Shown: positions 32,097 through 64,000 of the stretch, in pieces | Layout of the letters: each line of letters opens with the position of its first letter | Position numbering within the stretch: position 1 is the first letter of the stretch | NCBI GenBank assembly: GCA_003222395.1 | Contig: QHWB01000034.1 | Coordinates: forward strand, 67,460 to 131,459 | Direction of reading: 5' to 3' | DNA length: 64,000 nt | Origin: Acidobacteriota bacterium | GTDB taxonomy: Bacteria; Acidobacteriota; Vicinamibacteria; Vicinamibacterales; CAVVIG01 | Made by a program: the position numbers and the translations under genes | Notes under the pieces: generated by a model | What the model saw: the letters and a program-made list of their open reading frames with translations, nothing else | The model's database searches: none | What the model was told of the DNA's origin: nothing

Positions 32097-32136
32097 GAAG
32101 TGAAAAGTGAAAAGCACCGGTCGCTTGTTCACTTTC
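32097..32136 (-). terminator. heptamer-repeat hairpin overlapping the rpsO stop (rpsO terminator / pnp leader)
   Basis: GAAGTGAAAAGTGAAAAG .. TCACTTTC. On the minus strand, GAAAGTGA (which contains the stop) pairs with TCACTTTT and is followed by a T-rich run. Confidence 0.5.
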
Positions 32137-32398
32137 TGATGTTGAGTCGCCGAATCAAATCGGCGTAGCGCTGCGCGTCCTTCATCTTCAGGTAATCGAG
32201 AAGGCGGCGGCGCCGGCCGACCAGCATCAGCAGGCCGCGGCGCGAGTGGTGATCCTTTGCGTGCGTCTTGAAATGCTCCGTCAGATAGTTGATACGCTCG
32301 CTCAGGATGGCCACCTGCACTTCGGGGGATCCGGTGTCGGCGTCGTGGGTCTTATAACTCCCAATCAACTCGGTCTTGCGATCTTTGCTGAGTGCCAC
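32129..32398 (-). CDS. rpsO: 30S ribosomal protein S15
   Basis: 89 aa. [38 protein letters not shown] start with GGAGGT upstream. Confidence 0.95.
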
Positions 32399-32430
32399 CT
32401 GCGGGTACCTCCACGGACGCCCCAGTCAAC

Positions 32431-32530
32431 GCTGTTGTGCTCGCGGGTCCCACCCGCTCGCTCTCGCTGCGGCGCTCGCTTTCATCACGACGGCCGCAGG
32501 CGCTACCAGATGCGCCGTATAACCAAAAAC
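32431..32530 (-). repeat. family-A element between truB and rpsO
   Basis: The reverse complement reads ..AGCGCCTGCGGCC..GAGAGCGAGCGGGTGGGACCCGCGAGCACAACAG. Confidence 0.75.
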
Positions 32531-32555
32531 TTCTTAGTCGAGCAAGATCAACATG

Positions 32556-33506
32556 TTACCTCAGAACGACCGAGGGATGCAAAAGCCCGGAGGGGCCCAT
32601 CCGCTCGGCAATCGCGACCAGATCGCCGGCCGAGTCGAGCAGCCGGACGAACGGCCAGGAATCGGGATCCGCGGTTGGCGCAGCGGGCGCCTCCAGGTTA
32701 CGACCGTGAAGAGCTCGCTGCAGCCCCTCGGCGTCGAGCGTGACCGGCGGGAGGCTGGTCAGCATCCGCGCGAGTGGCACGACACCTCTCGCCGCGGCCT
32801 GCGGATCCCGCTCGGCTGCCGCCAGCGAGATCGAGTCGTCGAGCGAACACTCCCCGCTGAGCGTGCGCCGGAGCGCGATCAGATGAGCCCCCGTTCCGAG
32901 TCGTTCACCGAGATCGTGGGCCAGCGACCGAACGTAGAAGCCCCCGGAGCAGTGGAGCGTCAGCGACACTTGGTCGGCGTCGAGGTTTGTGATGACGAGA
33001 CGATTCACCGTCACGAGTGTCGGTGCCGGCGCGCCGTCAACATCCTGATTGAGTCCGACACCGGTCCGACCCCGATCCGACCCTGGTCCGACTCGTGTCG
33101 GACCCTGCCGTGCGAGGTCGTAGCTGCGGCGGCCGCCGATTTTCTTTGCGGAGAACAGGGGCGGCTGTTGCAGAAACTGACCGCGAAACGCGTCAAGCGC
33201 GCGATCGATCACTTCGACCGCCGGCAGTGGATGCTCGTACCGCGCGCCGACCTGTGTGCCATCGCTGTCGGCCGTGTCGGTTGCGAAGCCGAGACGGACG
33301 ATCGCTTCGTAGGACTTGTCGCCGGCGCTCAGGAATCGAGCCAGCCGCGTCGCACGGCCGATGACGAGCGGCAGCACGCCCGTCGCCAGCGGATCGAGCG
33401 TGCCGGTGTGCCCGATCCGCCGCTCGCGCAGGATGCGCCGCATTCGCGCGACGACGTCGTGCGACGTGGGACCGGACGGCTTGTCGACGACGAGCAAGCC
33501 GTCCAT
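32556..33506 (-). CDS. truB: tRNA pseudouridine(55) synthase
   Basis: MDGLLVVDKPSGPTSHDVV and GHTGTLDPLATGVL motifs. Confidence 0.92.
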   Translation of the reverse strand: MDGLLVVDKPSGPTSHDVVARMRRILRERRIGHTGTLDPLATGVLPLVIGRATRLARFLSAGDKSYEAIVRLGFATDTADSDGTQVGARYEHPLPAVEVIDRALDAFRGQFLQQPPLFSAKKIGGRRSYDLARQGPTRVGPGSDRGRTGVGLNQDVDGAPAPTLVTVNRLVITNLDADQVSLTLHCSGGFYVRSLAHDLGERLGTGAHLIALRRTLSGECSLDDSISLAAAERDPQAAARGVVPLARMLTSLPPVTLDAEGLQRALHGRNLEAPAAPTADPDSWPFVRLLDSAGDLVAIAERMGPSGLLHPSVVLR

Positions 33507-33511
33507 CGCGT

Positions 33512-34057
33512 TTACCGCACCGGGGAGAGCAGGCGCTCGAGCTCGTCGAGCCGGCTGTTCAAGTCGGTCCAGCGCGCCTGCTCGGCGGCCAACGCCTGCG
33601 CCGCCTCGTTCTCACGGATCTGCAGCTGCTGCTGCTCCGTGGCGAACTGACGCATCTGGAGCTGCGAGTTGCGAAGTCCGGCTTCCATCTCGCGGCGACG
33701 CGCCGGGTCGGTCTCGATCTGGATTTGCCGCTCGGCGTCGGCTATCTCCGCCGCCGTTCGCTGCACTGCCGCCTCGTGGCCTGCGAGCTGCGACCGCACG
33801 CTGGTCAGGTCGGAAGACAGATGCGAGACGCGCTGCTCCTCGATCGTCAATCTGGCGAGCGTCAGCTGCAAGCGCGGACCGACCGTCGCCTGCTGCTCCA
33901 TCGTCACGCGAAGCGCATGCACCTCCGCCAGCAGCGCAGCCAGCGGATCGCCCGCGCCGGGCGCCTGCGCCGACGCGCCGAGGGTCATCGACCCCGTGAT
34001 GGCGAGGATGCTGGCGATGATGACTACGTGAAGGACTCGCCCTGCCTGCGCGCGCAT
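33512..34057 (-). CDS. secreted coiled-coil protein, unknown function
   Basis: Signal-anchor N-terminus and Gln/Glu/Arg-rich heptad-like sequence. Sits inside the conserved translation gene cluster. Confidence 0.55.
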   Translation of the reverse strand: MRAQAGRVLHVVIIASILAITGSMTLGASAQAPGAGDPLAALLAEVHALRVTMEQQATVGPRLQLTLARLTIEEQRVSHLSSDLTSVRSQLAGHEAAVQRTAAEIADAERQIQIETDPARRREMEAGLRNSQLQMRQFATEQQQLQIRENEAAQALAAEQARWTDLNSRLDELERLLSPVR

Positions 34058-34073
34058 GTCACACCTCGCTTCG

Positions 34074-35072
34074 TCAATGCTCGAAACCCGCCATCCTGCC
34101 GTTCTGCGACTCGATGGCCCGTTCGATCTTCTCGATGAACATTTTCTGCAGCGCGTCGATGCCGCCCCGCACCGTGCAGCCTGCGGCGTTCTTGTGCCCG
34201 CCGCCGTTGAATTCCTTCGCGACCGCGCCGATGTCGACCTCGCCCTTCGATCGCATGCTCACGCGGTACTCCTCGCCCTCGGACTGCTTGAAGAAGACGA
34301 CGGCCTGGATCTCCTTCACGGTGAGGGGAAGATTGATGAGCCCTTCGGTGTCCTCATACGTGCCGCCGGCGGCGCGCGCCATCTCGTGATCGAGATACAC
34401 GATCGCGATCCGCCCCGTGACGTCGAGCTGCATCGCGCTCAGCACGGTGCCAAACAGCTTCAGCCGTCCCATGTTGTTGCTGTCGTACACGTTCCGCGCG
34501 ACGAGCAGCGGATCGACGCCCGCCTCGAGGCACTCACGGCAAATGTCGAACGTCCGCGGCGAAATATTCGAGTAATGAAACGATCCCGTGTCGGTGAGAA
34601 TCGCCAGGTAGACGTGGGTGGCGATCACCGGGGTGAGCGGAACGCCGAGCGCGCGGACCAGCTCGAATACCATCTCGCCGCACGCGGCCGCGCTCGCGTC
34701 GAACCAGTTCAGCGACCCGTACGCCGTGTTTCCCGGGTGGTGATCGATGTTGATCACCGGGAAGCGATCGAGGCCGCTGACCCCGGTGCGCGCGAGGTCG
34801 CCGCACTCCATGATGATCGCGGCGTCGAAGTCGTCCTCGACGGCCGGCGCGATGCGGATCTCCGGCACGCCGGGGAACTGCATCAGCGGTCCGGGCGCCG
34901 GATCGGCGTTGACGACGTCGAAGGCTTTGCCCATCTCGCGGAGCGCGTAGCCCATGGCGAGCTGCGATCCGATGGAATCGCCATCGGGACGGGCGTGCGA
35001 CGAAAGGACGAAGCGCTGCCGTGAGCGGATCGCGTCGACGATGCGCTGAAGATCAGGATTTACTGCCATCAT
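34074..35072 (-). CDS. DHH/DHHA1 phosphoesterase (NrnA-like oligoribonuclease/pAp phosphatase)
   Basis: DGDSIGS, DHHPGN and GGGHKNAAG motifs. Confidence 0.88.
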   Translation of the reverse strand: MMAVNPDLQRIVDAIRSRQRFVLSSHARPDGDSIGSQLAMGYALREMGKAFDVVNADPAPGPLMQFPGVPEIRIAPAVEDDFDAAIIMECGDLARTGVSGLDRFPVINIDHHPGNTAYGSLNWFDASAAACGEMVFELVRALGVPLTPVIATHVYLAILTDTGSFHYSNISPRTFDICRECLEAGVDPLLVARNVYDSNNMGRLKLFGTVLSAMQLDVTGRIAIVYLDHEMARAAGGTYEDTEGLINLPLTVKEIQAVVFFKQSEGEEYRVSMRSKGEVDIGAVAKEFNGGGHKNAAGCTVRGGIDALQKMFIEKIERAIESQNGRMAGFEH

Positions 35073-35442
35073 CGGTCGGCGTCTGGCCGGCGTGCAGCTC
35101 GTTGAGGAGCTGTTCGATGCGATCCTGGCCGGCGATCGATTCGTCGTAGATGAACTTCAGATCCGGTACGCGCCGCAGCCGCAGGCGCGATCCGATCTGA
35201 CGGCGCAGGAAGGGCGCGGCGCGCTCGAGCGCGCGCCCCGAGGTCTTTTGCGTTGTCGCTTCGGCGCCGGTCGGGCCGAGCGCGGTATAAAACACACGCG
35301 CGTGCTGCAGGTCGGGGGTCACCTCGACGCGAGTGATCGTCACGAACCCGATGCCGGGGTCGTGCACCTCGCGCGCGAGCAGGTTCCCCAGCTCGCCGCG
35401 AATCTGATCGGCGACGCGATCGGGACGCGATCCTTGTGACAT
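35053..35442 (-). CDS. rbfA: ribosome-binding factor A
   Basis: 129 aa. RVADQIRGELGNLL..ITRVEVTPDLQHARVFY. Confidence 0.9.
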   Translation of the reverse strand: MSQGSRPDRVADQIRGELGNLLAREVHDPGIGFVTITRVEVTPDLQHARVFYTALGPTGAEATTQKTSGRALERAAPFLRRQIGSRLRLRRVPDLKFIYDESIAGQDRIEQLLNELHAGQTPTDDGSKS

Positions 35443-35453
35443 CAGTAATGCAA

Positions 35454-35530
35454 GTTACAATTGAGAATTTACAATTTACAAGGTCAGGCGAACTTGGACT
35501 CTCTTTTGTAAATTGCAAATTGTCAATTAT
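35454..35530. repeat. family-B hairpin with heptamer-periodic arms (DUF503 / rbfA junction)
   Basis: Left arm GTTACAA|TTGAGAA|TTTACAA|TTTACAA. Right arm TTTTGTA|AATTGCA|AATTGTC|AATTATC. The arms are largely complementary around a ~24-nt loop. Confidence 0.8.
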
Positions 35531-35811
35531 CAAGTGAGGAACTCGACCTCGGTGCGCGTGATGAGCCCGGGCTCGACGCGCTCGATCTCTTCGGCGACGG
35601 CCGCCAGCTCGCGATCCGCGTGCGGCTCGTCAGTGCTCACCGTCACGACCGCGAGGCCGGCCCGCTGCCAGAGATCCTGGTGTTCGACCTCCGAGACTGC
35701 GACGTTGAACTTCTTCAGGCGGTCCTTGATCCGCCGCAGCACCATCCGCTTGTCCTTCAGTGACTGGCTGCCAGACACGTGAATCTCGACGGTCAACAGG
35801 CCGACGACCAT
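35530..35811 (-). CDS. DUF503 (YlxP-like) protein
   Basis: Start moved to ATG 35811 (MVVGLLTVEIHVSGSQSLKDKR). The upstream part of the track ORF is translated repeat sequence. Confidence 0.8.
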   Translation of the reverse strand: MVVGLLTVEIHVSGSQSLKDKRMVLRRIKDRLKKFNVAVSEVEHQDLWQRAGLAVVTVSTDEPHADRELAAVAEEIERVEPGLITRTEVEFLT

Positions 35812-35820
35812 TGTCTTATT

Positions 35821-35972
35821 CGCGGCGGAGCCCCACCCCCGCCGCGCTGGCGCGCTCGTGACTTTTCCTCTGCTCGCGGGGCCCCACCCCCGCTCGCCCT
35901 CGCTCGCGCATTCGCGCTCGCTCCAGCCGCAGGCGCTCCCCTCGCGCATATCCAGAACAGAACGTCACCACG
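35821..35972 (-). repeat. family-A element (full copy + second core) between infB and DUF503
   Basis: The reverse complement reads GGTGACGTTCTGTTCTGGATATGCGCGAGGGGAGCGCCTGCGGCTGGAGCGAGCG..GGGCGAGCGGGGGTGGGGCCCCGCGAGCAGAGGAAAAG..GGCGGGGGTGGGGCTCCGCCGCGAATAAGACAATG. Confidence 0.85.
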
Positions 35973-36014
35973 TTATCAAGATCGGACTGTCTTCGTGGTT
36001 CGTGTCTTCGTGGC

Positions 36015-38885: not shown

Positions 38886-38888
38886 CGA

Positions 38889-40328
<1,440 letters not shown>

Positions 40329-40335
40329 GTTGCCT

Positions 40336-40821: not shown

Positions 40822-40825
40822 AAAC

Positions 40826-42309: not shown

Positions 42310-43602
42310 TCACGGATACAACCTATACAGCATGCGCGGATACGGAATCGCCTCCCGCAAATGATCGAGCTTGCAAATCCACGAGACGACGCGTTCGATG
42401 CCCATTCCGAAGCCGCCGTGAGGCACCGTGCCGTATCGACGTAGATCGAGATACCACTCGAACGCTTCCTGCGGCAGATCGTGTTCCTTGATCCGCTTCA
42501 GCAGCAGATCGAGATCGGCCAGACGCTCGCCGCCGCCGATGATCTCGCCGTATCCCTCGGGCGCAAGCACGTCGACGCCGAGCGCGAGCTCGGGCCGATC
42601 GGGATCCGGCTTCATGTAAAATGCTTTCACCGCGGCAGGGTAGCGGTGAACCATCACGGGGCGGTCGTATTGCTCCGACAGCGTCGTTTCGTCGGGCCCG
42701 CCGAAGTCGCCGCCCCACTCGATCGGCAGCCCTTTGGACTGCAGCGTCTTGACCGCGTCGTCGTACGAGATTCGCGGAAACGGCTTCTTCACCCGCTCGA
42801 GCGTCGACGTGTCGCGTTCGAGGACTTTCAGTTCAGGGCGCCGTTTGTCCACCACCCGCGCCACCACCTCGACGACCAGGTCTTCGGCGAGCTCCATCAC
42901 GTCGTCGAGAGACGCGTATGCCATCTCGGGCTCGACCATCCAGAATTCCGTCAGGTGCCGCCGGGTCTTCGACTTCTCCGCGCGGAACGTCGGCCCGAAG
43001 CAGTACACCCGGCCGAGCGCCATCGCGTTCGCTTCGTTGTACAGCTGACCGCTCTGTGTCAGATAGGCCGTCGTCTCCTCGAAGTACTGCGTCGGAAAGA
43101 GCGTCGTCGTCCCCTCGCACGCGGCGGGCGTGAAGATCGGCGTGTCGGCGAGGATGAATCCGCTCGAGTTGAAGAAGTCGCGAATCGCGTTGATCACCTC
43201 GTGGCGCACGCGCAGGATCGCCTGCTGCCGTTCTGTGCGGATCCACAGATGACGGCGGTCGAGCAGGAAATCGACGCCGTGCTCCTTGGGCGTAATCGGA
43301 TAGTCGTGTGATTGGCCGACGATCTCGAAGCCCTCGACATCGATCTCGTATCCGCTCGGCGCGCGCTTGTCGGCGCGGACCGTGCCCGTCACGATGATCG
43401 AGGTTTCCTGCGAGAGGTGATCCGCCTGCTTGAACAGCTCTTCGCCGACCGCGGCCTTCGACATCACTCCCTGGATGAAGCCGGTGCCGTCGCGCACGAT
43501 CAGAAAATGAATTTTTCCGCTCGAGCGGCGGTTGTGCAGCCATCCTTTGATGGTCACCTCCTGCCCCTCGTGCTTGCCGATATCCTCTATGTAGACGTGC
43601 AT
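42310..43602 (-). CDS. asnS: asparagine--tRNA ligase
   Basis: 430 aa class IIb aa[23 protein letters not shown] is AsnRS-like. Confidence 0.85.
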
Positions 43603-43649
43603 AATCAGCTACAGCGTTCGGCTATCAGCTTTGGCCGGGAGCTGACAGC
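43603..43649. repeat. family-B-like hairpin (isomerase stop / asnS start)
   Basis: GCTATCAGCT ttggccggg AGCTGACAGC, 9 of 10 bp paired, preceded by the direct repeat AATCAGCTACAGC. The right arm overlaps the stop codon. Confidence 0.6.
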
Positions 43650-44365
43650 TATTCAGTGACCAACATGCGTTCCATTCGTTCGCGCACTTTGCGCGCCCGC
43701 TGAAGTGTTTCTTTCGCCGCGACCCGGCCGACGATGTCGAACACGAACGGCCCTTCGTAGCCGACCTTCTGCACCGCCGTCAGCGCCGACAGCCAGTCGA
43801 TTGCGCTGTCGACCGGCACGTGCGTCGTGATCAGATGCTCCGACACGGTCTCGATCGTGTCGACCAAATCGCCGCCTCGCTGCGCGTGCGCGAAATCGAG
43901 GCAGACGCCGGCAGCCACGTCGAGCGTCTCCACGAAATGGACGAGCGAGCCGGCGGGCGTCATCGAATCCGAGCTGGAATCGACGGCGATCCGAACGCCG
44001 AGCGGCGACGCAAATCCCGCCAGCCGCTCCACCTCGCGTGCCGCGCCGCGTGGTTTGCCCGCGTGAAGGACCAGCACGCGCATCGGCAGGCGCCGCGCCA
44101 TGAAGAGCGCCTGATCGGCGTCCTCAGGCGCCGTTCCGATCGGGACGTCCACGCCGTGCAGCTCGAGTCGCGCTTCCGCCAGCCACTGCTGCAGGTCGGC
44201 GACAACGGCCGGGTTGTGGAAGTCCACGTGCGTGCGATCGGCCACGACCTCGACCGTCTCGAATCCGTGCGCGGCGATCTCCGCCAGGTGCTCGCGGCTC
44301 AGGCGCTGATGCCGATAGAGACGCGTCGACACCCCGAACTGACGTTTTGCCACGGATCGAACCAT
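43649..44365 (-). CDS. sugar phosphate isomerase/epimerase (xylose isomerase-like TIM barrel)
   Basis: 238 aa. Family-typical N-terminus (FGVSTRLYRHQRLSREHLAEIAAHGFETVEV). Confidence 0.7.
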   Translation of the reverse strand: MVRSVAKRQFGVSTRLYRHQRLSREHLAEIAAHGFETVEVVADRTHVDFHNPAVVADLQQWLAEARLELHGVDVPIGTAPEDADQALFMARRLPMRVLVLHAGKPRGAAREVERLAGFASPLGVRIAVDSSSDSMTPAGSLVHFVETLDVAAGVCLDFAHAQRGGDLVDTIETVSEHLITTHVPVDSAIDWLSALTAVQKVGYEGPFVFDIVGRVAAKETLQRARKVRERMERMLVTE

Positions 44366-47034: not shown

Positions 47035-47943
47035 TTAACTCCCAAGTCTCTGAAACATCAATCGAACAAACACATACATCGTGAAGCACTCGAGCGCGAA
47101 CGGAGGGAAGCCCAGGTAGCCGGGCAGCGGCATCTCGAAAACTTTCCAGTCTTCCATGATCGGAACGGTGTAGTGCCATTTCGCTTCGGCCCAGAAGTTC
47201 CACATTTCCCAGAGCACGCCGCACAGCAATCCGCTGCCGAGGAGATCGGCGGTCCGATGACGATCGGCCATCAGCGTGGCGCCGCCGAGCCGAAAATTGA
47301 TCGGATCGAGCAGAAAGATGAACCCGAGCCACACCGGCGCCGCGAGATACCTTGCAACGTCGCGGGAGACGAGAAAGGGCACGAGCAACATAGCTGTCCC
47401 GATCGCGATGGACAGGGAGCGCCCGCGGCTCGAGCAAGGCGCGGGGTGGCCCGCCGGAGGGAACGTTCTCCGTCCGTCTCCTGCCGCTGTGGCCCCTCCC
47501 GCCGCTCCGGCCTCTCCCGCCGGTCCGGCCCATCCCGCCCCTCCTGCCCGTCCCGCCCCTCCTGCCCGTCCCGCCCAGACAGAGATCAGATCGGCTCCCT
47601 CGAAGATCGCGGGCCATATTGTCGCGAACGACCAGGCGTAGCCGAACATCCGGAGAAACCAGTTCTCCGGAAGGCCAGTGTAGTACCAGTTCCGGATAAT
47701 CAGGTTGTAGCCTTCGAACACAATCCAGAGCGGAATGGAAAGGATCGCGAGCAGCGCGAACTCGCGCGGCGACGATCGCATCCACGATCGGCCGCGCGCG
47801 CGGTACACGATGGTGTCGGCGAAGAGGATGAAGCCAGTCCAGCAGATCGGTGTATTCCACGAATAGAACGGCTCGATGCGCGCGATCGTCGCCGCTTCGG
47901 ACACGATCATGATGGCGAGGCCGGCGACGGCCGCTGCGCTCAT
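47035..47943 (-). CDS. polytopic membrane protein of unknown function with repeat-encoded Gly/Ala loop
   Basis: Multiple Trp/Phe-rich TM segments. The central loop AGRAGGAGRAGGAGWAGPAGEAG is encoded by an 18-bp tandem repeat. ATGA overlap with the upstream gene. Confidence 0.6.
   Translation of the reverse strand: MSAAAVAGLAIMIVSEAATIARIEPFYSWNTPICWTGFILFADTIVYRARGRSWMRSSPREFALLAILSIPLWIVFEGYNLIIRNWYYTGLPENWFLRMFGYAWSFATIWPAIFEGADLISVWAGRAGGAGRAGGAGWAGPAGEAGAAGGATAAGDGRRTFPPAGHPAPCSSRGRSLSIAIGTAMLLVPFLVSRDVARYLAAPVWLGFIFLLDPINFRLGGATLMADRHRTADLLGSGLLCGVLWEMWNFWAEAKWHYTVPIMEDWKVFEMPLPGYLGFPPFALECFTMYVFVRLMFQRLGS
47415..47580. repeat. diverged family-A fragment (opposite orientation to gene) plus 18-bp tandem repeat
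   Basis: The plus strand reads AGCGCCCGCGGCTCGAGCAAGGCGCGGGGTGGCCCGCC. TCCCGCCCCTCCTGCCCG repeats at 47533, 47551 and, partially, 47569. Confidence 0.7.
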
Positions 47944-49406
47944 GTGACGCGCATCCTGTACGAACAGCCCATGAGCGATGGAGTGCCGACGTTCTTTCCC
48001 AGGATCAGGACCTTGTGACTGCTGCCGAGGCCTCCTGGCATCAGCAGCGTTCTGAGGGCAGCGTTCCGCTTCAAATCCGCGCGAGCGGTACTTTTCTCCA
48101 TTGCGGCAGGGATCCCATCCCCGACGCTGCTGCTCGACCCGTTCGCGCCTCGCAATGGCTCGAGGCTGCCGCTCGCCGACGAGCCCGCATTTTTCAACGC
48201 TCGCGGGGTTCCACCCCCGCTCGCGTCGCTCGTGCCCTCGCGCTCGCTCGAGCCGCGGGCGCTGCTCTCGCGCGTATGTAGAAAAGTGCGTCGCAGTCGA
48301 TCGTCACTTTGCAGAAGGCCAAGCAAAAAGTACGTCTGATCGAGAAATCCGAGGATTGTGAGGCCTTCGGCTTCGGCCGCTCGGCGAACCGACGTGAAAT
48401 CGACGTGCGCGGTGATGTCCTGCCCGCCGGCACTCTGCAACCACGCGGGCGCATCGGGCCGCAGCTCCGAGCCCGCGCTGTGATGGCCGTAGAACGTTGT
48501 GAGCGTTCCGGCAGAATGCGACGCGGAGTAGAGCTCGCGCGCCTCGTGGCCGTAATCGATCACGATGATGAAACCGCGCCGCAGCCGGCGCGCCGCGTCC
48601 CGGATCCATTCGACTGCGCGCAGATTGACTTCGACGCGCCATCCGGGTTCGAGACGCGCGGCGATGCTATCGAGATATTCGGCTAGTGCCGGTGTCGAAG
48701 GCGGACCCTCGACAGTCGTCAGTCGCCAGTCGTCGGTCGTCGGTCGCGACGACTGCTGATCGCCGACTGCTGACTGAAGACTGATGACTGGTGACTGAGG
48801 ATCGATGACTGACGACTGATGACTGACATATATTTCCCGTAATCCGTCCGTCCGCATGACGACCTGATGCACGGGCAACGCGTCGAGCAGCTCGTTGGCG
48901 ACGAGCACCCCTTCGAACGACGCGGGCAGCGATGATTCGGAAGATGTCAGTCGATCGGCGACCTCGGCGAGCATCGCACGTTGAGCGCCGCGTGCGGCGG
49001 CGCTGGCTTCGACGAGGTGCAGGCGAATCCGGGCGTAGAAGCCTGGATGCTCGCGCGTCGCGGCGCGAAGGATGTCCGTCGAGAGGCGGGCATTTCCGGC
49101 GCCGGCTTCGACGAGATCGAAGGGCCGAGCGAGCTCGCCCCGCAGGCCGGATTCTGCTGCGAGCAAGCGGAACATTTCCTCGATCTGGACTTCGAGGAGC
49201 TCGCCGAAGAGCGGACCGATATCGACGCTCGTAAGAAAATCGCCCGCGCGGCCGGATCGTTGGGGCGCGCGGGCGTAGTAGCCGAGCTCGGGATCGTAAA
49301 GCGCCAGCTCCATGAACGCGGCCACCGTCAGTGGACCGCGCTGGCGAACGCGCTGCGCGAGTCGGGATTCGGGATTTGGGATTCGGGATTCGAGAGGCGT
49401 CGTCAC
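47940..49406 (-). CDS. MidA/NDUFAF7-like SAM-dependent methyltransferase (DUF185) with three repeat-derived segments
   Basis: N-terminus GPLTVAAFMELALYDPELGYYA, ANELLDALPVHQV, and GFIIVIDYGH. GTG start at 49406 lies in the loop of a hairpin repeat. Confidence 0.75.
   Translation of the reverse strand: MTTPLESRIPNPESRLAQRVRQRGPLTVAAFMELALYDPELGYYARAPQRSGRAGDFLTSVDIGPLFGELLEVQIEEMFRLLAAESGLRGELARPFDLVEAGAGNARLSTDILRAATREHPGFYARIRLHLVEASAAARGAQRAMLAEVADRLTSSESSLPASFEGVLVANELLDALPVHQVVMRTDGLREIYVSHQSSVIDPQSPVISLQSAVGDQQSSRPTTDDWRLTTVEGPPSTPALAEYLDSIAARLEPGWRVEVNLRAVEWIRDAARRLRRGFIIVIDYGHEARELYSASHSAGTLTTFYGHHSAGSELRPDAPAWLQSAGGQDITAHVDFTSVRRAAEAEGLTILGFLDQTYFLLGLLQSDDRLRRTFLHTRESSARGSSEREGTSDASGGGTPRALKNAGSSASGSLEPLRGANGSSSSVGDGIPAAMEKSTARADLKRNAALRTLLMPGGLGSSHKVLILGKNVGTPSLMGCSYRMRVT
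48188..48296 (-). repeat. family-A element in-frame inside the MidA-like gene
   Basis: The reverse complement reads GCGACGCACTTTTCTACATACGCGCGAGAGCAGCGCCCGCGGCTCGAGCGAGCG..GACGCGAGCGGGGGTGGAACCCCGCGAGCGTTGAAAAATG. Confidence 0.8.
48712..48830. repeat. family-B heptamer-repeat hairpin in-frame inside the MidA-like gene
   Basis: The right arm is GACTGAT|GACTGGT|GACTGAG|GATCGAT|GACTGAC|GACTGAT|GACTGAC. The left arm is CAGTCGT-type units. CAGTCGTCAGTC (48713) is complementary to GACTGACGACTG (48807). Confidence 0.8.
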
Positions 49407-49442
49407 CCTGCGATTCCCAAATCCCGAATCCCGAATCCCGAC
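49363..49442. repeat. family-B hairpin (GGGATTC)n / (GAATCCC)n between htrA and the MidA-like gene
   Basis: CGGGATT|CGGGATT|TGGGATT|CGGGATT, a 16-nt loop, then ATTCCCAAATCCCGAATCCCGAATCCCG. Confidence 0.9.
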
Positions 49443-49449
49443 TCCGATG

Positions 49450-51042
49450 TCACTCTTTGCGGACCGGCACGAACGTCTCGTTGTCGCCGCGCCAGACGCG
49501 CAGCTGCGCGAGGTGGCCCGACTGCACCTTCTGCAGCTCGCGCTGTGCTTCGGATGCGTTCGACACGCTGCGGCCGTTGACCGAGAGAATGACGTCGCCT
49601 TGCCGCAGCGCGCCGGCCGATGGCCCGTCGGGATCGACGTCGGTGACGATCGCGCCCGACTGTCCCGATGGAAGCCGCAGCCTCCGCGACAGTTGCGATG
49701 TCAGGTTCTCGAGCGTCAAGCCAAAGCCGCTCGCGCCCTGCTGTTCGGGCTGCTGCGTGTCCGGCTCCTGATTGCGGCGTCCGCCGCCCGTCGCCTGCTG
49801 CTCGGCCTCGAGATCCAGCTCCTCGACGGTCACGTTGAACGTTTTCTCCTGCCGATTGCGCAGCACCTTGACGGGCACGCTCGTGCCCGGCCTCGTGGCC
49901 ACGACCATCTTCACGAGCTCGTCGTTGTTCGCAATCGGCCGGCCGTTGTACTCGACGATCACGTCGCCCGGCTCGATGCCGGCTTTGGCCGCCGGACCGC
50001 TCGAGGGCACCTGCGCGACGACGGCGCCTTTGCGTTCCTTGAGCCCGAAGTCCTGGTAAGCCTCGCGCGGGACCGCGATCACCGAGACGCCGATGCGTCC
50101 GCGCGTGATCTTGCCGGTCCGCAGCTGCGGCAGCAGGTCGTGAATCGTATTGATCGGCACGGCGAATCCGATGCCGATGTTGCCCTCGGTCTGCGAGTTG
50201 GTGATGATCGCCGTGTTCATCCCGATCACTTCGCCGCGCACGTTCAGCAGCGGACCGCCCGAATTCCCCGGGTTGATCGCAGCGTCGGTCTGAATCATGT
50301 CGTTGTTGCGGCCGTTGGTCACCGGGAACGCGCGTCCGACCGCGCTGACCACGCCGACCGTCACCGTGTGGCGATACCCGAACGGGTTGCCGATGGCCAT
50401 CACCCAGTCACCGGGCGCCATCTGCGCGGAGTCGCCGAACTTCACCTCGGGCAGCGCCCCCTTCGGTTTGTCGACGAGCTCGAGGAGGGCGCTGTCGGTC
50501 AGCTGATCTCTGCCGATCACCTTCGCCGTATATGGCGTCTCATCGTCACCGTAGAGGTACACCTCGATCTTGGTCGCATCCTCGACGACGTGGTTGTTGG
50601 TGAGGATGAAGCCGTCCTTGCTGATGACGAATCCCGTGCCTGCCGCCGACGTCTTCGGCTCGCGCTGCGGCCGGCCGCGCCGGTTGCCGCCGCGTTGATC
50701 TTGATCGTCCTGCTGGCCGGGATTGCCGAAGAAGCGATGGAAGAGATCGTCCGGTGTCGTGCCGCGGCCGCCGAAGAACTCGGTGAGGTCGTTGCTCTTC
50801 GCCTTCATCTCGGTCCGGATGTTCACGACCGACGGCGTCACCGACTTCGCGATGTTCCGGAAGGTGTCGGCGCTCAGCGGGCCGGTAATGGGCGCGCTGT
50901 TGGTCGCCGGTACGTTGATCGTCTGCGCTGATGACGCGGGCGTGAGATCGAGCCGCGACGCGAGCACCATGCCGACAGCCAGCGAGGCGACCGCGATCAG
51001 GAGCGCATAAAATAATGTGGTCTTGCGAGTGGACATCGTCAC
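49450..51042 (-). CDS. HtrA/DegP-family serine protease with two PDZ domains
   Basis: Catalytic GNSGGPLLN, TNNHVV and DSALLEL motifs, plus two PDZ regions. Confidence 0.92.
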   Translation of the reverse strand: MTMSTRKTTLFYALLIAVASLAVGMVLASRLDLTPASSAQTINVPATNSAPITGPLSADTFRNIAKSVTPSVVNIRTEMKAKSNDLTEFFGGRGTTPDDLFHRFFGNPGQQDDQDQRGGNRRGRPQREPKTSAAGTGFVISKDGFILTNNHVVEDATKIEVYLYGDDETPYTAKVIGRDQLTDSALLELVDKPKGALPEVKFGDSAQMAPGDWVMAIGNPFGYRHTVTVGVVSAVGRAFPVTNGRNNDMIQTDAAINPGNSGGPLLNVRGEVIGMNTAIITNSQTEGNIGIGFAVPINTIHDLLPQLRTGKITRGRIGVSVIAVPREAYQDFGLKERKGAVVAQVPSSGPAAKAGIEPGDVIVEYNGRPIANNDELVKMVVATRPGTSVPVKVLRNRQEKTFNVTVEELDLEAEQQATGGGRRNQEPDTQQPEQQGASGFGLTLENLTSQLSRRLRLPSGQSGAIVTDVDPDGPSAGALRQGDVILSVNGRSVSNASEAQRELQKVQSGHLAQLRVWRGDNETFVPVRKE

Positions 51043-55027: not shown

Positions 55028-55038
55028 CGGGAAACGAC

Positions 55039-55566: not shown

Positions 55567-55619
55567 AGGTTCCTCCCGGGGTATGTGGACGAGCTGTAAG
55601 CTGAACGAAAGATTATAGC

Positions 55620-56078
55620 TTACATCTCGCCGTTCCAGTCCTCCGGTTCGGGGTTTACCGACCGGAATATTTCCATGTGCCATTTGCCGCCGCCCCACGG
55701 CTCGATGACCTCGGCCGCGACGACGTCGACGAGAATCTCCGAGAAAAGCCGTCCTTCCGGATCGCCTTCGAGATGGTAGGCCGGCTCGTCCCAGCCGAAG
55801 TTCGGATAGAGCATTAGCGTGAGGAACAAATCGTACCCATCGTCGACGACGATCAGCTGACCGCAGGGGCGCTTCAGCGTGGAATGGTAAATGAGGTATT
55901 TCTCGGCGGAGTGCGCGCGGATGTAGCGCTTGAGCGCGAACTCGCGCGCGACGATTTCTTCGACGGCGATCTTCTTGTCCCAGCAGTCGCGGCAATACTT
56001 CTCTTCGCCGCGCGGCTCGGACACGTCCTTGGCGCCGCACAGCGCGCACCGCGACTTGGCGACCGACTTGCGAGGCAT
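55620..56078 (-). CDS. hypothetical protein with N-terminal CxxC..CxxC zinc-ribbon
   Basis: CALCG..CRDCW motif. No family recognised. Confidence 0.55.
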   Translation of the reverse strand: MPRKSVAKSRCALCGAKDVSEPRGEEKYCRDCWDKKIAVEEIVAREFALKRYIRAHSAEKYLIYHSTLKRPCGQLIVVDDGYDLFLTLMLYPNFGWDEPAYHLEGDPEGRLFSEILVDVVAAEVIEPWGGGKWHMEIFRSVNPEPEDWNGEM

Positions 56079-56087
56079 CGCACCAAT

Positions 56088-56200
56088 CTACAATTTACAA
56101 GTGACAATGTCCAAAGAGTGGCAATGTCGACAGAGTGGCAATGCCCAAAGAGCGGCAACATCCAAGAGGGGCTGAATCGTCACTTGTCAATCGTCAATTG
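56088..56200. repeat. family-B hairpin arms flanking a ~17-bp tandem repeat (glgP stop / downstream gene start)
   Basis: Left arm CTACAAT|TTACAAG|TGACAAT. Right arm TCACTTG|TCAATCG|TCAATTG. ACAAGTGAC (56097) pairs with GTCACTTGT (56179). AGAGTGGCAATG-type units lie at 56115, 56132 and 56149, plus a partial fourth. Confidence 0.8.
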
Positions 56201-59322: not shown

Positions 59323-59399
59323 GGCGGGTAAATCGTAGCTGCCTCAGGAGATGAGCGTCAATGCTGAGCACCGTCACGCCCGCCGTCTCAGCTGTACTA

Positions 59400-59460
59400 A
59401 GGGAGCAGTGCGAAATCAGCTCTTCACCACGGATTGGTGGCGAGCTTGATTCTGCTCTCT
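59400..59460 (-). terminator. long imperfect hairpin immediately after the DmpA-family gene stop
   Basis: GGGAGCAG/CTGCTCTC, AAATCAGCTC/GAGCTTGATT and CACCA/TGGTG pair in a nested fashion. No clear U-tract. Confidence 0.5.
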
Positions 59461-59461
59461 G

Positions 59462-60595
59462 TCATTTCCTGAGCAGCTCGCGGAGCCTCTCCAGCGGGAT
59501 CGCTTCCGCCTTGCCGAAGCGCGAAGTCACGGTCGTCGCCTGGAAGAGCGAGTTGTAGACCGCTTCTTCTGTCGCTTCGAGCGCGGCTTCGAAGAGAGGC
59601 GAGGTCGCATCGGTCGGCAGAATCTGCCGCGTGTGCGGCGACGTTTCGTTGAAAGGGCTCCGCATGGCGGGTGCCGTCGAGAACGCGATCGCGAAGTCGC
59701 CGCTGCCGTTGCTGTACGCCGAACCGGTGCGGCCCAGGCCGAAGACGGCGCGCGCCGCAAGCCGGTGCAGATCGCGGGCGTCGAGCGGCGCGTCGGTCGC
59801 GACCACCAGCATGCAGGAGCCGTCATCCTTCGACTCCGACCCTGATTCCGGCCCCAGTGGGGCGGTGAGACGGTTCGGCGGCTGCAGCATCTTATAGATG
59901 GGTACGCCGGCGATTGTCAGGTTGCCGCCGAAATTGGTCTGCGCGAGAACGCCGACGGTGTAGCCGGTGCGATCGAGTTTGCGAGACGAGGTGCCGATCC
60001 CGCCTTTCCAGCCGTAGCAGATCGTTCCCGTGCCTGCGCCGACGGCGCCTTCCGCAACCGGACCGGTTCTCGCGTTCGCGATCGCGTCGAGCACGTGCTT
60101 CGTCGTGACGTGCAGTCCGCGGATGTCGTTCAAGCCGCCGTCGTTGGTCTCGCCGACCACTGCGTTGACCGATCGCACCTGCTCGTTGCCGCGCTGCGAC
60201 AGCGTGTAGCGCACGAGCGCGTCGACCGCGACGCCGACGCTCAGCGTGTTGGTGAGCACGATCGGCGTTTCGATCGTGCCGAGCTCGGCGACCTGCGTCG
60301 ATCCGGCGAGCTTGCCGAACGCGTTGCCGACGAATATGGCGCCGGCGACCTTCTCCTGAAACACGTTGCCGCCATGCGGCACGATGGCGGTGACGCCGGT
60401 GCGGACGCTGTCGCCTTCGACGATCGTCGTGTGCCCCACGCGCACGTCCGCGACGTCCGTGATGGCATTGAGCGGACCGGGCGAGAAGACGCCGGGTGCG
60501 ATGCCGACGTCGCGCGCGCGCGGCCGCGTTTGCGCGGCCAGCGCCATTATGGAGAGGGCCGCGACGAGGGCAGTCGAACTGTGGCGTGGAAGCAT
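59462..60595 (-). CDS. DmpA/P1 (S58) family aminopeptidase
   Basis: Signal peptide and family-typical GVTAIVPHGGN...TNDGGLNDIRG. Confidence 0.85.
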   Translation of the reverse strand: MLPRHSSTALVAALSIMALAAQTRPRARDVGIAPGVFSPGPLNAITDVADVRVGHTTIVEGDSVRTGVTAIVPHGGNVFQEKVAGAIFVGNAFGKLAGSTQVAELGTIETPIVLTNTLSVGVAVDALVRYTLSQRGNEQVRSVNAVVGETNDGGLNDIRGLHVTTKHVLDAIANARTGPVAEGAVGAGTGTICYGWKGGIGTSSRKLDRTGYTVGVLAQTNFGGNLTIAGVPIYKMLQPPNRLTAPLGPESGSESKDDGSCMLVVATDAPLDARDLHRLAARAVFGLGRTGSAYSNGSGDFAIAFSTAPAMRSPFNETSPHTRQILPTDATSPLFEAALEATEEAVYNSLFQATTVTSRFGKAEAIPLERLRELLRK

Positions 60596-60639
60596 TGCGT
60601 TCTCTTCGGCGATCGGCCGGCTAGAGCCTCGTGACGGCG

Positions 60640-61203
60640 CTATCGTAATGCTGAAAGCTGCGCAGAGATCCGATCGAGCCGCGCGATCAGTTCGCCGTGG
60701 CGCTCCGCCTCGGGCGTCGGTTTCTTCGCCAGGAAACAGATGCTGCCGCCGGGATCCAGGATCGCTCGATCGATCTCGTCGAGCGACGCGAAACCCTGCT
60801 TGTGCGCGGCGGCCTCGAGCTCGACTCGCGAAATCAACTCCTTGCGGAGCCGATCCTGCCGGATGACGCCGTTCTCAATCAACACATCGGGATCGCCTTC
60901 CACGAGCCGTTCGAGTTTTTCGTGTTCGAAGAGGAAGCGGACGACGACGTAGTTGATGACGAGCAGCGTCGTCGCGCCGATGATTCCGCCGGTCACGCTG
61001 TTGTCGTCGCCGATGATGGCGTTCTGCACCGTGTTCGACAACGTGAGCAACACGACCAGATCCAACGGGTTCAACTGCGCCAGCTCGCGTTTACCGGCGA
61101 CGCGGAGCCCGGCGATCAGGAAGAAATAGACCGTGATGGGCCGCAGCACCTTTTCCGCAATGGGCAGCCCGAGAACGAACATGTCATGCAGCGTCTTCAC
61201 CAT
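60640..61203 (-). CDS. DUF421 (YetF-like) membrane protein
   Basis: LNPLDLVVLLTLSNTVQNAIIG motif. Confidence 0.8.
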   Translation of the reverse strand: MVKTLHDMFVLGLPIAEKVLRPITVYFFLIAGLRVAGKRELAQLNPLDLVVLLTLSNTVQNAIIGDDNSVTGGIIGATTLLVINYVVVRFLFEHEKLERLVEGDPDVLIENGVIRQDRLRKELISRVELEAAAHKQGFASLDEIDRAILDPGGSICFLAKKPTPEAERHGELIARLDRISAQLSALR

Positions 61204-61309
61204 GCGGCGATTGTATGAAGAGCGGACCCGGAGCGGACCTGGCCGGCGATGTGCTTACGACAGACTTACGTTTCTGTCATGCGGCCCGCCGCCGGGCCTC
61301 CGAGTGCCA

Positions 61310-61337
61310 TTGACCTGGGATCGCAGGCCGGTATAAT
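61310..61337 (+). promoter_or_regulatory. near-consensus sigma70-type promoter for the propeller/phosphoesterase gene
   Basis: TTGACC-N16-TATAAT, 36 nt upstream of ATG 61374, in a divergent intergenic region. Confidence 0.55.
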
Positions 61338-61373
61338 CGACGCGGTGTACCTCGACAACCAAAAAGTTCCTTG

Positions 61374-63884
61374 ATGTTACATCCCGTCGCATCGACCACG
61401 ACGATCCGAAAGGTCGCCCCTGGTCTTGGTGCGCTGTGCCTTGCCTTGATTGGGTCGGTCCTGATCTCCCGCGCCCAGTCCGCTCCGCCTCAAGCGACGG
61501 CCGCTCCGGGCGCCATGAGCGACGGCACGATGCTGCTGCCGAACGGGTGGCGGCTCGCGCCGGCCGGGAAGCATCTTCCGCTCAGCACGCTGCCGCTCAA
61601 CATCGTCGTCTCGCCGGATGGTCGCTACGCGCTCATCACCACGAACGGCTTGACGAAGCCGGCGTTGACCGTCGTCGACATCGCGAGCTGGAAGGTCAAG
61701 AGCACACTGACGATCGACGCGGCGTGGTACGGCCTCGCATTCAGCCCTGACGGCACGAAGATCTACTCGGCAGGCGCAGCGCAGAACAACGTGCAGGAGT
61801 TTTCGTTCGCGTCCGACGGCACGCTCACGCGCGCGCGGACGTTCGCGTTGCCGGCGCAGAACGGCGACACGTTCGCGGGCGGCCTCTCGGTGAGCCGCGA
61901 CGGACGCACGTTGTATGCGACGCGCGTCTTTGCGATGACGCTCTCGGCCATCGATCTCACCAGCGGTCAGGTGGTTCGGACGGTGCCGCTGCCCGCCGAG
62001 CCGTACACGAGCGCCGTATCGCCCGACGGCCTTCTCGTGTTCGTCTCGCTGTGGGGCGGCTCCCGCGTGCAGGTGTATCAGGCCGATTCGCTGTCGCTGT
62101 ACGCCGAGCTCACGACCGACGAGCATCCGAACGCGATGACGTTCTCCAACGACGGTCGCCGGCTGTTCGTGGCCTGCGCGAACAACGCCGCGGTGTGGTC
62201 GTTCGACACCCTCGCGCTCGCGCCCATCGAGCAGATCGCGGTAACGATGTCTCCCGACGCGCCGCCCGCGACGACGCCGAACGCGCTCAGCCTGTCGCCG
62301 GACGGCAACACGCTCATCGTCGCCAACGCGGACATGAACGCCGTCGCGGTCATCGACGTGAGCAATGCGTCGCGCGCCTTCGTCAGCGGCTTCATCCCGA
62401 CCGGCTGGTACCCGACCGGCGCCGTGTTCACGCGCGACGGCCGCAACATCCTCGTTCTCAGCGGCAAGGGGCTCGCATCGGCCGCGAACCCGACGAACGG
62501 CGCCCTGGAGAAACGGCTCGTCGGCGCGGTGTCAATCGTGCCGACGCCCGATCGCGTCGCGCTCGCGGAGTACACGCGCAAGGTTGCCGCGGTGACGCCC
62601 TATAACGACAACATCCGCCTCACGCCGGCCAACGCGCCGGTCGGCGTCGCCATTCCGCGATCGGTCGGCGGCAGCTCGCCGATCAAGCACGTGTTCTACA
62701 TCATCCGCGAGAACCGCACGTACGATCAGATTCTCGGCGACGTCGCGCAGGGAAACGGCGACCCGAAGCTGACGCTCTTCGGCAACGACGTGACGCCCAA
62801 CGCGCATGCGATCGCGCAGTCGTTCGTGCTCTTCGACAACTTCTACGTCGACGCCGACGTCAGCTACAACGGGCACGCGTTCTCGACGGCGGCGTACGTC
62901 ACCGACTTCATCGAGAAGACGTGGCAGACGTTCTACGCCGGACGCGGCGGACTATATCTGTCCGAGGGCGGCGGCTTCCTCCGGAATCCCTTCGGCAACA
63001 TCAGCGCCTCGGCGCGCGGGTACATCTGGGATGTCGCGCGTCAGAGCGGCGTGTCGGTGCGCAGCTACGGCGAGTTCGTGGCGCACGCGTCGCGATCGGC
63101 GACCGGCGAGGTGACCGCGGTCGCCACGGTACCCGGCCTCTCCGGCATTGTCGCGCCGTCGTATGCGGGGTGGGATCTCGACATCACCGACGCCAGACGG
63201 GCCGACGCCTGGCTCGCCGAGTTCCGGCAGTTCGAGGCGAACGGCGCGCTGCCGCAGCTGTCGATCATCCGGCTGCCGAACGACCACACAGCCGGCACGC
63301 GCCCCGGATCGCCGACGCCGCGCGCGATGGTCGCCGACAACGACATCGCGCTCGGCCGCATCGTGGAAACGATTTCGAACAGCGCGTACTGGAAGGACTC
63401 GGCGCTGTTCGTCGTCGAAGACGATGCGCAGAGCGGCCCGGACCACGTCGATTCGCACCGGTCGGTGCTGCTCGTCGCGAGCCCGTTCGCCAAGCGCGGC
63501 TTCGTCGACCACACGCTGTACTCGACGTCGTCGGTGCTGCGCACGATCGAGCTGATCCTCGGTCTCACGCCGATGAGCCAGTACGACGCGGCCGCCGCTC
63601 CGCTGTACAACGCGTTCACCGGCACGCCGAACATCGCGACGTATCAACGCCTGGTGCCGCGCGTGCCGACCGACGAGAAGAACCTGCCCGGCTCGTTTGG
63701 CGCTGCGGCATCGCTGGCGATGGATTTCTCGGTCGAGGATCGCGCGCCCGAGGTGCTGTTGAACGACATCATCTGGCGCTCGATCAGAGGCGCGAGCTCG
63801 CCGATGCCGCCGCCGCGCCGCAGCGTCCTCGTGCGTCCCGCATCAGGTGCCGCAGAGGCCGACGACGATGATGACATCTGGTAA
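61374..63884 (+). CDS. YncE-like beta-propeller fused to phosphoesterase (PLC/AcpA family) domain
   Basis: Signal peptide, YVTN-type propeller repeats (SPDG..), and the C-terminal HVFYIIRENRTYDQILGD phosphoesterase motif. Confidence 0.8.
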   Translation: MLHPVASTTTIRKVAPGLGALCLALIGSVLISRAQSAPPQATAAPGAMSDGTMLLPNGWRLAPAGKHLPLSTLPLNIVVSPDGRYALITTNGLTKPALTVVDIASWKVKSTLTIDAAWYGLAFSPDGTKIYSAGAAQNNVQEFSFASDGTLTRARTFALPAQNGDTFAGGLSVSRDGRTLYATRVFAMTLSAIDLTSGQVVRTVPLPAEPYTSAVSPDGLLVFVSLWGGSRVQVYQADSLSLYAELTTDEHPNAMTFSNDGRRLFVACANNAAVWSFDTLALAPIEQIAVTMSPDAPPATTPNALSLSPDGNTLIVANADMNAVAVIDVSNASRAFVSGFIPTGWYPTGAVFTRDGRNILVLSGKGLASAANPTNGALEKRLVGAVSIVPTPDRVALAEYTRKVAAVTPYNDNIRLTPANAPVGVAIPRSVGGSSPIKHVFYIIRENRTYDQILGDVAQGNGDPKLTLFGNDVTPNAHAIAQSFVLFDNFYVDADVSYNGHAFSTAAYVTDFIEKTWQTFYAGRGGLYLSEGGGFLRNPFGNISASARGYIWDVARQSGVSVRSYGEFVAHASRSATGEVTAVATVPGLSGIVAPSYAGWDLDITDARRADAWLAEFRQFEANGALPQLSIIRLPNDHTAGTRPGSPTPRAMVADNDIALGRIVETISNSAYWKDSALFVVEDDAQSGPDHVDSHRSVLLVASPFAKRGFVDHTLYSTSSVLRTIELILGLTPMSQYDAAAAPLYNAFTGTPNIATYQRLVPRVPTDEKNLPGSFGAAASLAMDFSVEDRAPEVLLNDIIWRSIRGASSPMPPPRRSVLVRPASGAAEADDDDDIW

Positions 63885-64000
63885 TTGGATAATCGGGTAA
63901 TTGGATAATCGGGTAATCTGAGAAGACGATTACCAGATTTCGCGATCATTCAATTCCTCAATCCAATTACCCGATTACCCGATTACGCGATTACCCAATT
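63881..64000. repeat. family-B hairpin with 8/16-nt periodic arms (runs off window end)
   Basis: GTAATTGGATAATCGG x2 after the stop at 63884, an inner GTAATC..GATTAC stem, and a right arm CCAATTACCCGATTACCCGATTACGCGATTACCCAATT. Confidence 0.8.

Follow-up and report, generated by a model that had tools for sequence, protein, structure and literature searches.

STRR-like heptanucleotide arrays and hairpins at gene junctions and inside a MidA-family gene of a high-GC Vicinamibacterales-like acidobacterium

Introduction

Short tandemly repeated repetitive (STRR) elements have been known in cyanobacteria since 1990, with CCCCAGT, TTGGTCA and CAACAGT as the canonical units STRR1-3, and, going by the title of Vioque 1997, they reportedly occur inside the RNase P RNA gene as well. 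Among other bacterial palindromes, the repetitive extragenic palindromic (REP) sequence of E. coli malE-malF stabilises upstream mRNA, and Rickettsia palindromic elements (RPEs) are palindromic DNA lying in frame inside protein-coding genes, to which they add a tolerated peptide segment. The present study deals with long hairpins, whose arms are built of tandem 7-8 nt units, in a 64,000-nt stretch of an Acidobacteriota genome (assembly GCA_003222395.1, contig QHWB01000034.1, positions 67,460 to 131,459; hereafter the window). The initial annotation of this DNA did not recognise them as a described element class. However, hairpins of 7-bp repeats between genes have been described in filamentous cyanobacteria as STRR (PMC2670836), and with the window elements this class, known but still without an explanation, gains a new phylum and a place within protein-coding sequence. 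We lean towards reading them as STRR-like, locally generated and slippage-driven heptanucleotide (sometimes octanucleotide) arrays, which are often inverted into hairpins.

The STRR are "usually made up of 7 bp repeats" and lie as hairpins in spacers such as that of hupS-hupL; what they do is not known, and effects on the stability of transcripts or on the coupling of translation have been suggested (PMC2670836). The window elements share with them the tandem 7-nt units, the many unit sequences per genome, the location in intergenic spacers and the frequent pairing of inverted arrays into hairpins. Occurrence inside a gene is a further likeness (the MidA-family gene here and, as far as the title of Vioque 1997 goes, the RNase P RNA gene for STRR). 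The host differs, as it is a 65% GC Vicinamibacterales-like acidobacterium and not a heterocyst-forming or filamentous cyanobacterium, and the units are unlike STRR1-3. Moreover, the window arrays stand out as islands richer in AT, one hairpin forms part of the translated frame of a protein gene and is retained across species, and the inverted form makes up 4-5 of ~6 low-GC arrays in the window compared with ~16% in cyanobacterial loci.

Direct repeats of the heptamer TAACTGA occur near start codons in marine Beggiatoaceae, some Cyanobacteria and Bacteroidetes, and binding by cold-shock proteins (CSP) has been raised as a possibility for heptamer repeats (MacGregor 2015, PMC4679880). In common with the window, the heptamer arrays are found for the most part in intergenic DNA, near start or stop codons, and the units contain stop codons, so that all three frames are closed by three units; with TGACTGA (48765-48826), the window has a unit one base different from TAACTGA. 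However, a single unit dominates per genome and its repeats are almost always direct, with 169 direct sets against 1 inverted (PMC4679880), whereas the window carries many units and hairpins are common. The REP, bacterial interspersed mosaic element (BIME) and REPIN sequences of Proteobacteria (PMC3116915) are likewise extragenic palindromes that lack U-tracts and separate co-directional genes. The family sequence of REPs is conserved in hundreds of copies, with a cognate REP-associated tyrosine transposase (RAYT) and non-tandem arms, whereas the window elements show no consensus and their units are local in origin. The palindrome in the MidA-family gene resembles an RPE in being in frame and in an open reading frame (ORF); however, RPEs are a conserved-sequence mobile family of ~100-150 bp, whereas the MidA insert is an array of variable unit number with no copies elsewhere in the DNA examined. 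No transposase family was present among the window genes examined (~70 kb of source genome covered), and no paper linking Vicinamibacter* with tandem repeats was found in the literature searched.

Tandem-unit hairpins in the window

Inverted tandem pairs were detected as two Tandem Repeats Finder (TRF) arrays of equal period with reverse-complementary units located <=150 nt apart. In the window this detector revealed 4 loci, and in 60 shuffles with local composition kept it revealed 0, which shows the arrangement to be non-random. Eight hairpins with tandem arms had been listed in the initial annotation, and five of these loci are long hairpins with arms of tandem 7-8 nt units. They are given below together with a direct array found by TRF.

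35452-35528, minus strand: hairpin with 23-nt arms, 91% complementary, of TTTACAA-type units; fold z = -4.5
48709-48827, minus strand: hairpin of (TCGTCAG)x5.4 against (GACTGAT)x8.9; fold z = -3.7
49359-49444, minus strand: hairpin with 34-nt arms, 91% complementary, of GGGATTC/T x4 per arm; fold z = -9.5
56084-56200, minus strand: hairpin with 25-nt arms, 80% complementary, and a 17-nt x3.5 tandem array in the loop; fold z = -2.2
63876-64003, plus strand: hairpin with 35-nt arms, 89% complementary, of 8/16-nt units GGTAATTG GATAATCG; fold z = -6.6
35988-36012, minus strand: direct octamer array CACGAAGN x3, right after the infB stop codon; not a hairpin

The last of these hairpins ends ~3 nt past the window end and is complete in the related contigs L108-L111 (relatives are given by such L numbers below). 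TRF placed arrays of period 7 at 35451-81, 35506-28, 48709-46, 48765-826, 49362-92 and 49411-45, and one of period 8/16 at 63876-64000. Head-to-tail 7-nt repeats, several differing units at 5-6 loci and hairpin-forming inverted arrays are thus all present in the window. The GC content of the arrays was 22-57% against 65% for the 64-kb window, in agreement with their earlier description as AT-richer. A search of the whole window against Rfam 15 at the gathering threshold gave 0 matches.

The other three listed loci were short hairpins of an ordinary kind. The one at 32097-32136 (minus strand, rpsO-pnp spacer) was borderline and not a clear member, having 2 GTGAAAA units in one arm only and a fold z of -1.4, and 16 of 200 shuffles folded equally well. 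The locus 43603-43649 (minus strand, spacer between the isomerase-like and aminoacyl-tRNA synthetase genes) is a weak hairpin with no tandem units (z = -1.9); in L101 and L102 the matching spacer is 13 nt long or the genes overlap. A plain stem-loop with no TRF array was seen at 59400-59460 (minus strand, after the Peptidase_S58 stop codon; z = -3.5). The recurrence of AATCAGCT, earlier taken as a shared motif, is at chance level with 4 occurrences in the window.

Junction hairpins and stop codons

Placement at gene junctions, claimed earlier for all members, could be confirmed for four of the five hairpins, the exception being 48709-48827, which lies in frame inside the Methyltransf_28/MidA gene. 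The reported start at or within a stop codon was borne out as well, since the first unit contains the stop codon of DUF503, glgP and the phosphoesterase gene. The hairpin 35452-35528 fills the DUF503-rbfA spacer with sense arms TTGATAA TTGACAA TTTGCAA TTTACAA and TTGTAAA TTGTAAA ..., and the DUF503 stop TGA lies inside its first unit (CTTGATAA TTGACAA...; unit TTGATAA; stop at 35530). It is kept in 10 strain-level contigs with few substitutions or indels. In the case of 56084-56200, the spacer between glgP and the gene of a conserved 152-residue protein (p152) is filled; the first unit contains the glgP stop TGA (CAATTGA CGATTGA CAAGTGA; stop at 56180) and the tandem array of the loop occupies 56100-56158. 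The right arm of this hairpin overlaps a promoter-like, sigma-70-like pair, TGGACA-17-TAGATT. Only 6 nt separate the end of this pair from the p152 ATG, which suggests that the p152 transcript may be leaderless or near-leaderless. The hairpin at 63876 follows the phosphoesterase/beta-propeller gene, with the stop TAA (63882-63884) within the first unit (TGG TAA TTGG), and 49359-49444 has the HtrA stop codon (49450) on one side and the MidA N-terminus on the other.

In-frame hairpin of the MidA-family gene

The ORF 47940-49406 is open through 48709-48827, and its Pfam Methyltransf_28 match is one stretch (residues 77-354) that spans the hairpin. The left arm, (CAGTCNT)n, is read as QSSV(I/V)S-type repeats and the right arm, (ACGACTG)n, as SRPTTDD/WRLTT. 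Alignment of orthologues revealed the hairpin as a ~30-residue insertion, SHQSSVIDPQSPVISLQSAVGDQQSSRPTTDDW, located in the linker that joins the two blocks alignable with 4f3n, a solved structure of COG1565; the PDB alignment splits around the insertion.

Species-level relatives with 69-95% MidA identity were compared. The in-gene hairpin was present in seven lineages (window, L101-L103 and L105-L107) with lengths of 90, 111, 117, 123, 132, 144 or 147 nt, and in every copy the length is a multiple of 3 and the frame is open. The copies fold at -44 to -88 kcal/mol. Across lineages the left arm is (CAGTCNN)n and the right arm (NNGACTG)n, with TGG in the place of an in-frame TGA. The hairpin of L107 is 21 nt longer than that of the window, in one arm only, and in L104 (79% MidA identity, same gene order) the site is empty and reads REVYV-DDGGL-VEDAPSTP. 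Among the Vicinamibacterales loci examined, (CAGTCNN)x3 arrays were found only at the orthologous MidA site. This in-frame and species-variable hairpin is a clean natural case of repeat DNA making variable protein loops.

The second hairpin of this gene bears on its start codon. Gene callers placed the start at ATG 49313; however, the conserved N-terminal helix (...RVRQRGPLTVAAF) lies upstream of that ATG. The only in-frame start codon upstream of the helix is GTG 49406, in the loop of 49359-49444. This GTG is likely the MidA start, and therefore the 3' arm of the hairpin is probably translated as ESRIPNPESR. The start is placed inconsistently by gene callers, giving proteins of 457, 461 or 488 residues, and the elements can thus mislead start-codon calling.

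The C-terminus of MidA (~48053-48263, minus strand) carries a ~65-residue GC-rich insertion, rich in Ser and Gly, which is absent in most relatives; it is present in P0001, and P0024 has an insert at that place. It folds strongly, yet it is not a heptamer hairpin and was set aside. In other lineages the C-terminal loop holds a heptamer-encoded NPQSAIR repeat of AATCCGC units. The arrays at the MidA start and near its C-terminus are reverse-complementary in L003 (3415-3447 versus 4444-4475) and L009 (9978-10008 versus 10956-10988), forming an inverted repeat ~1 kb apart that brackets most of the gene.

Turnover among strains and relatives

All elements were present and near identical in 26 contigs of 97-99.98% identity. 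Changes at this level were limited to substitutions and 1-3 nt indels in 35452-35528 and to one extra 17-nt loop unit of 56084-56200 in L100. The strain comparison proposed with the initial annotation therefore showed almost no change in unit number apart from this single unit, and unit-number instability is visible only at the species level. There, the variation among relatives described above (+21 nt in one arm of L107 and inserts of 90-147 nt), together with the +17 nt of the one strain, agrees with the earlier suggestion of slippage-prone arrays.

The HtrA-MidA junction displayed a range of states. Direct heptamer arrays could be observed in L002 (ATTTCAG), L003 (GGATTGC), L004 (AGATTGA) and L009 (GGATTTC), and direct GATTGCC/CAGATTG arrays in L101-L103 and L106. 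L005 has a partial hairpin, and full hairpins were seen in the window and L107. The junction was empty in L001, L007, L066, L010-L012 and L104; in L104 the hairpin is lacking because the HtrA TGA overlaps the MidA GTG. Lineage-specific arrays or hairpins were also present among relatives at the glgP-p152 and aminoacyl-tRNA synthetase-MiaB junctions.

Local origin of the units could be traced at the HtrA-MidA junction. In L004, the HtrA stop region AGAGATTGA (...AGA GAT TGA) runs on as AGATTGA x4 and closes with AGACTGA; in L002 and L009 this last heptamer is seen as the ancestral gene end, free of an array. The I-A-D codons of the MidA N-terminus recur as the units GATTGCC and GCGATTG in L102, L103 and L106. 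Comparison of filled and empty sites (window or L107 versus L104) revealed no target-site duplication and no discrete insertion boundaries; the segment was replaced or expanded.

The octamer CACGAAGN forms hairpins or direct arrays in relatives. Together with its reverse complement NCTTCGTG, it was observed in five Vicinamibacterales-like genomes at differing junctions, as direct arrays or near-perfect hairpins, at the following sites.

Window: 35988-36012
L002: 4831-4895
L005: 15081-15104 and 16462-16536
L001: 5016-5047
L066: 15408-15440

In metagenome scaffolds of this species, N gaps or contig ends fall exactly at hairpins (L100 8383-8482, L090 9568-9667, the end of L112 and the start of L105). 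The repeat hairpins fragment short-read assemblies, and this breakage is a practical effect of the elements on metagenomes.

Distribution of the period-7 architecture

Arrays of <60% GC were counted by period in 357 kb of Vicinamibacterales-like DNA. Period 7 was in excess (n=29), followed by periods 8 (n=13), 9 (n=11) and 14 (n=6), and all others had <=5. An exact search for GGGATTY x3 in metagenome contigs returned at least 120 stretches. Among the matches listed, 59 of 80 loci were >=60% GC, and ~12% had the hairpin arrangement against ~88% direct. In 330 kb of high-GC loci taken from the listed matches, 28 inverted tandem pairs were found, 25 of them of period 7, and ~11 had units unrelated to the GGGATTY query; the density of ~1 inverted pair per 12 kb equals that of the window. 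A further 817 kb of mostly cyanobacterial loci, obtained as by-catch of the MidA search, contained 244 period-7 arrays and 19 inverted pairs. The architecture is likewise common in Nostocales, where it goes under the name of STRR hairpins.

A near-perfect hairpin of ~140 nt with GAAATCC-type heptamer arms was observed at L053 17737-17877, in the anammox planctomycete Candidatus Loosdrechtia aerotolerans (Brocadiales). The architecture is thus also found outside cyanobacteria and Acidobacteriota. As a soil acidobacterial order of high GC and many other high-GC metagenome contigs abound in the same combination of period 7, inverted hairpin pairs and stop or start placement, what was a cyanobacterial curiosity becomes a cross-phylum phenomenon, and phylogenetic profiling for the responsible machinery is opened.

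Proposed origin and alternative explanations

In the proposed scheme, an array would be seeded from local, relatively AT-rich sequence, either a heptamer that includes the stop codon of a gene or the codons with which the following gene begins. It would then gain and lose units by replication slippage, with units homogenised within the array, and strand-switch or fold-back copying may place an inverted copy beside it to give a long hairpin. As both arms are periodic and could pair in many registers, the hairpin would survive unit gains or losses in either arm. Arrays would persist where they are tolerated, that is, in short co-directional spacers, or in protein surface loops if the length is a multiple of 3 and stops are avoided. 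The transcripts would form stems of 25-50 bp without U-tracts that may stabilise the mRNA between cistrons or be processed by RNase III-type cleavage. In this sense the elements could plausibly act in the processing or stability of mRNA, although the tests run gave no support for it, and we infer that the arrays may be neutral or have an incidental function.

Several observations weigh against slippage from local sequence as the full account. Generic slippage does not explain the preference for period 7. GGGATTC/AATCCCG occurs at non-orthologous sites in the window, L001 and L066, CACGAAGN does so in five genomes, and a 16/17-nt stretch, CTTGTAAATTGTA(A/G)ATT, is common to 35452-35528 and 56084-56200. 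Such recurring units hint at spread between loci or sequence-specific selection, and the conservation of CACGAAGN across genera is not explained by a purely local origin. All seven lineages retain the complementary CAGTC/GACTG core of the in-gene hairpin, even though identity of the host protein falls to ~69%, which suggests active maintenance (by selection or inter-arm conversion) and not pure neutrality. The placement right after stop codons would also be expected of a functional post-stop RNA element. It is conceivable, if unlikely, that a dedicated heptamer-making mechanism exists, namely a polymerase, primase or repair activity that moves in steps of 7 nt, or copying templated by hairpins, common to Vicinamibacterales, Nostocales, Beggiatoaceae, some Bacteroidetes and Brocadiales; in that case the hairpins would be actively maintained at the DNA level, punctuating operons and writing variable 7-residue-periodic loops into proteins such as MidA.

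The alternative that deserves most attention, though we regard it as doubtful, is that the elements are selected intercistronic RNA elements. Post-stop stems would guard 3' ends in a REP/BIME-like manner, offer RNase III-type cleavage or control translation or coupling of the next gene, and tandem units would merely be the way in which such stems evolve. The four intergenic members begin at or a few nt from a stop codon and fill co-directional spacers, their stems of 23-35+ bp would be enough for dsRNA-specific nucleases, and in several genera arrays or hairpins are present at the same junctions. The location of the probable MidA start codon, within the loop of 49359-49444, and the functions proposed for STRR hairpins, transcript stability and translational coupling (PMC2670836), point in the same direction. 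However, when 16 hairpins were folded on both strands, the sense strand was the more stable in 8 and the antisense in 8, and there was no sense-strand excess of G·U over A·C. The arms of the MidA hairpin showed no compensatory covariation either, with a complementarity of 0.49 within lineage versus 0.53 across. Further, because the corresponding junctions of relatives carry direct arrays that do not pair, or are empty (in L104 both sites are empty and the genes overlap), the hairpin form would appear dispensable there, and the in-ORF member with its 35-50 bp stem is hard to fit as a 3'-end element. Rho-independent termination, possibly of a type without a U-tract, can be given very little credence. 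Stable stems do lie downstream of stop codons and the L002 hairpin 4831-4895 stands at a convergent gene junction, but the consensus terminator scan of the window found none at any member and no T-run follows any of them. As already held in the initial annotation, they lack U-tracts and are not canonical intrinsic terminators; their AT-rich and long stems are unlike the GC-rich stem and U-tract of such terminators, most occupy the short gaps of conserved clusters of co-directional genes (for example, infB-DUF503-rbfA), and one is inside an ORF.

Non-autonomous mobile DNA of a REP/REPIN-, MITE- (miniature inverted-repeat transposable element) or RPE-like kind, mobilised in trans, with the MidA copy analogous to the Rickettsia elements, seems improbable to us. 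Such an origin would fit dispersed palindromes with presence and absence among relatives, the in-frame copy within a gene, units that recur at unrelated loci, the 16/17-nt stretch shared by two window elements and the very wide spread of GGGATTY arrays in metagenomes. However, no family consensus could be found; arms, loops and lengths are locus-specific, the units run on from the flanking gene sequence, from which they derive, and at orthologous sites the arrays change in place, their unit sequences drifting from one lineage to another. The filled and empty sites lack target-site duplications and defined termini, and the GGGATTY arrays among the matches listed are mostly (~88%) direct. Identity with REP or MITE families is rejected on account of the absent consensus and absent target-site duplications, and the lead towards a RAYT/REP-like system offered in the initial annotation was not upheld, given the locus-specific units derived from flanking sequence. 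Even less probable is that the units are sites bound by a DNA- or RNA-binding protein whose footprint is 7 nt (for example, of the cold-shock-domain type), or that the arrays consist of promoter elements, in which case the hairpin would be secondary. In favour of this, the arrays have conserved cores of 5-7 nt with 1-2 variable positions (CAGTC-NN, CACGAAG-N, GATT-NNN), CSP binding has been raised for heptamer repeats (MacGregor 2015, PMC4679880), and the right arm of 56084-56200 supplies a -35/-10 pair placed for a near-leaderless p152 transcript. That arm was, however, the sole hit at the elements in a consensus promoter scan, with no sense-strand match in 35452-35528; the units differ wholly between loci and drift between lineages at one locus, and no candidate protein was identified.

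Genomic context and other repeats

The nearest relatives in the genome collection were Vicinamibacterales/Acidobacteriota metagenome-assembled genomes (MAGs) with 50-65% amino-acid identity for one probe gene. Exact-protein look-ups revealed identical proteins of the same species in many soil metagenome assemblies and in 2 NCBI MAGs, GCA_003222465.1 and GCA_003223715.1. Genes between 30 and 61 kb of the window lie mostly on the minus strand. The gene map around the elements is as follows.

29971-32082, minus strand: pnp
Beside pnp, minus strand: rpsO (the rpsO-pnp spacer holds 32097-32136)
35053-35442, minus strand: rbfA
35530-35949, minus strand: DUF503
Stop codon just before the array 35988-36012, minus strand: infB
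42310-43602, minus strand: class II aminoacyl-tRNA synthetase
43649-44365, minus strand: TIM-barrel isomerase-like gene
47940 to ~49406, minus strand: Methyltransf_28/MidA-family gene (Pfam)
49450-51042, minus strand: HtrA
55620-56078, minus strand: conserved 152-residue protein (p152)
Minus strand: glgP-like gene, then PALP
59462-60595, minus strand: Peptidase_S58
61371-63884, plus strand: phosphoesterase/beta-propeller gene

The p152 protein has no Pfam match and a Cys-rich N-terminus (CALCG...YCRDCW). Its identity is 83-99% across relatives in which MidA is only 50-65% identical, which is unusually conserved for an uncharacterised protein.

Other tandem repeats of the window were also noted. 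A GC-rich coding repeat of 18/9 nt, CTCCCGCCGCTCCGGCCC x5.4, lies at 47478-47576 inside the ORF 47035-47943 (minus strand), whose 302-residue product has no Pfam match and was called with 296 residues in L099 and 290 in L100. Near the 3' end of the ORF 642-1835, a GC-rich 93-nt tandem repeat with 2.3 copies of 98% identity occupies 1597-1812. Finally, the 9-nt tandem repeat GCGAAAGAC x5.2 at 13778-13824, which stands outside the heptamer family, is probably in-frame coding sequence.

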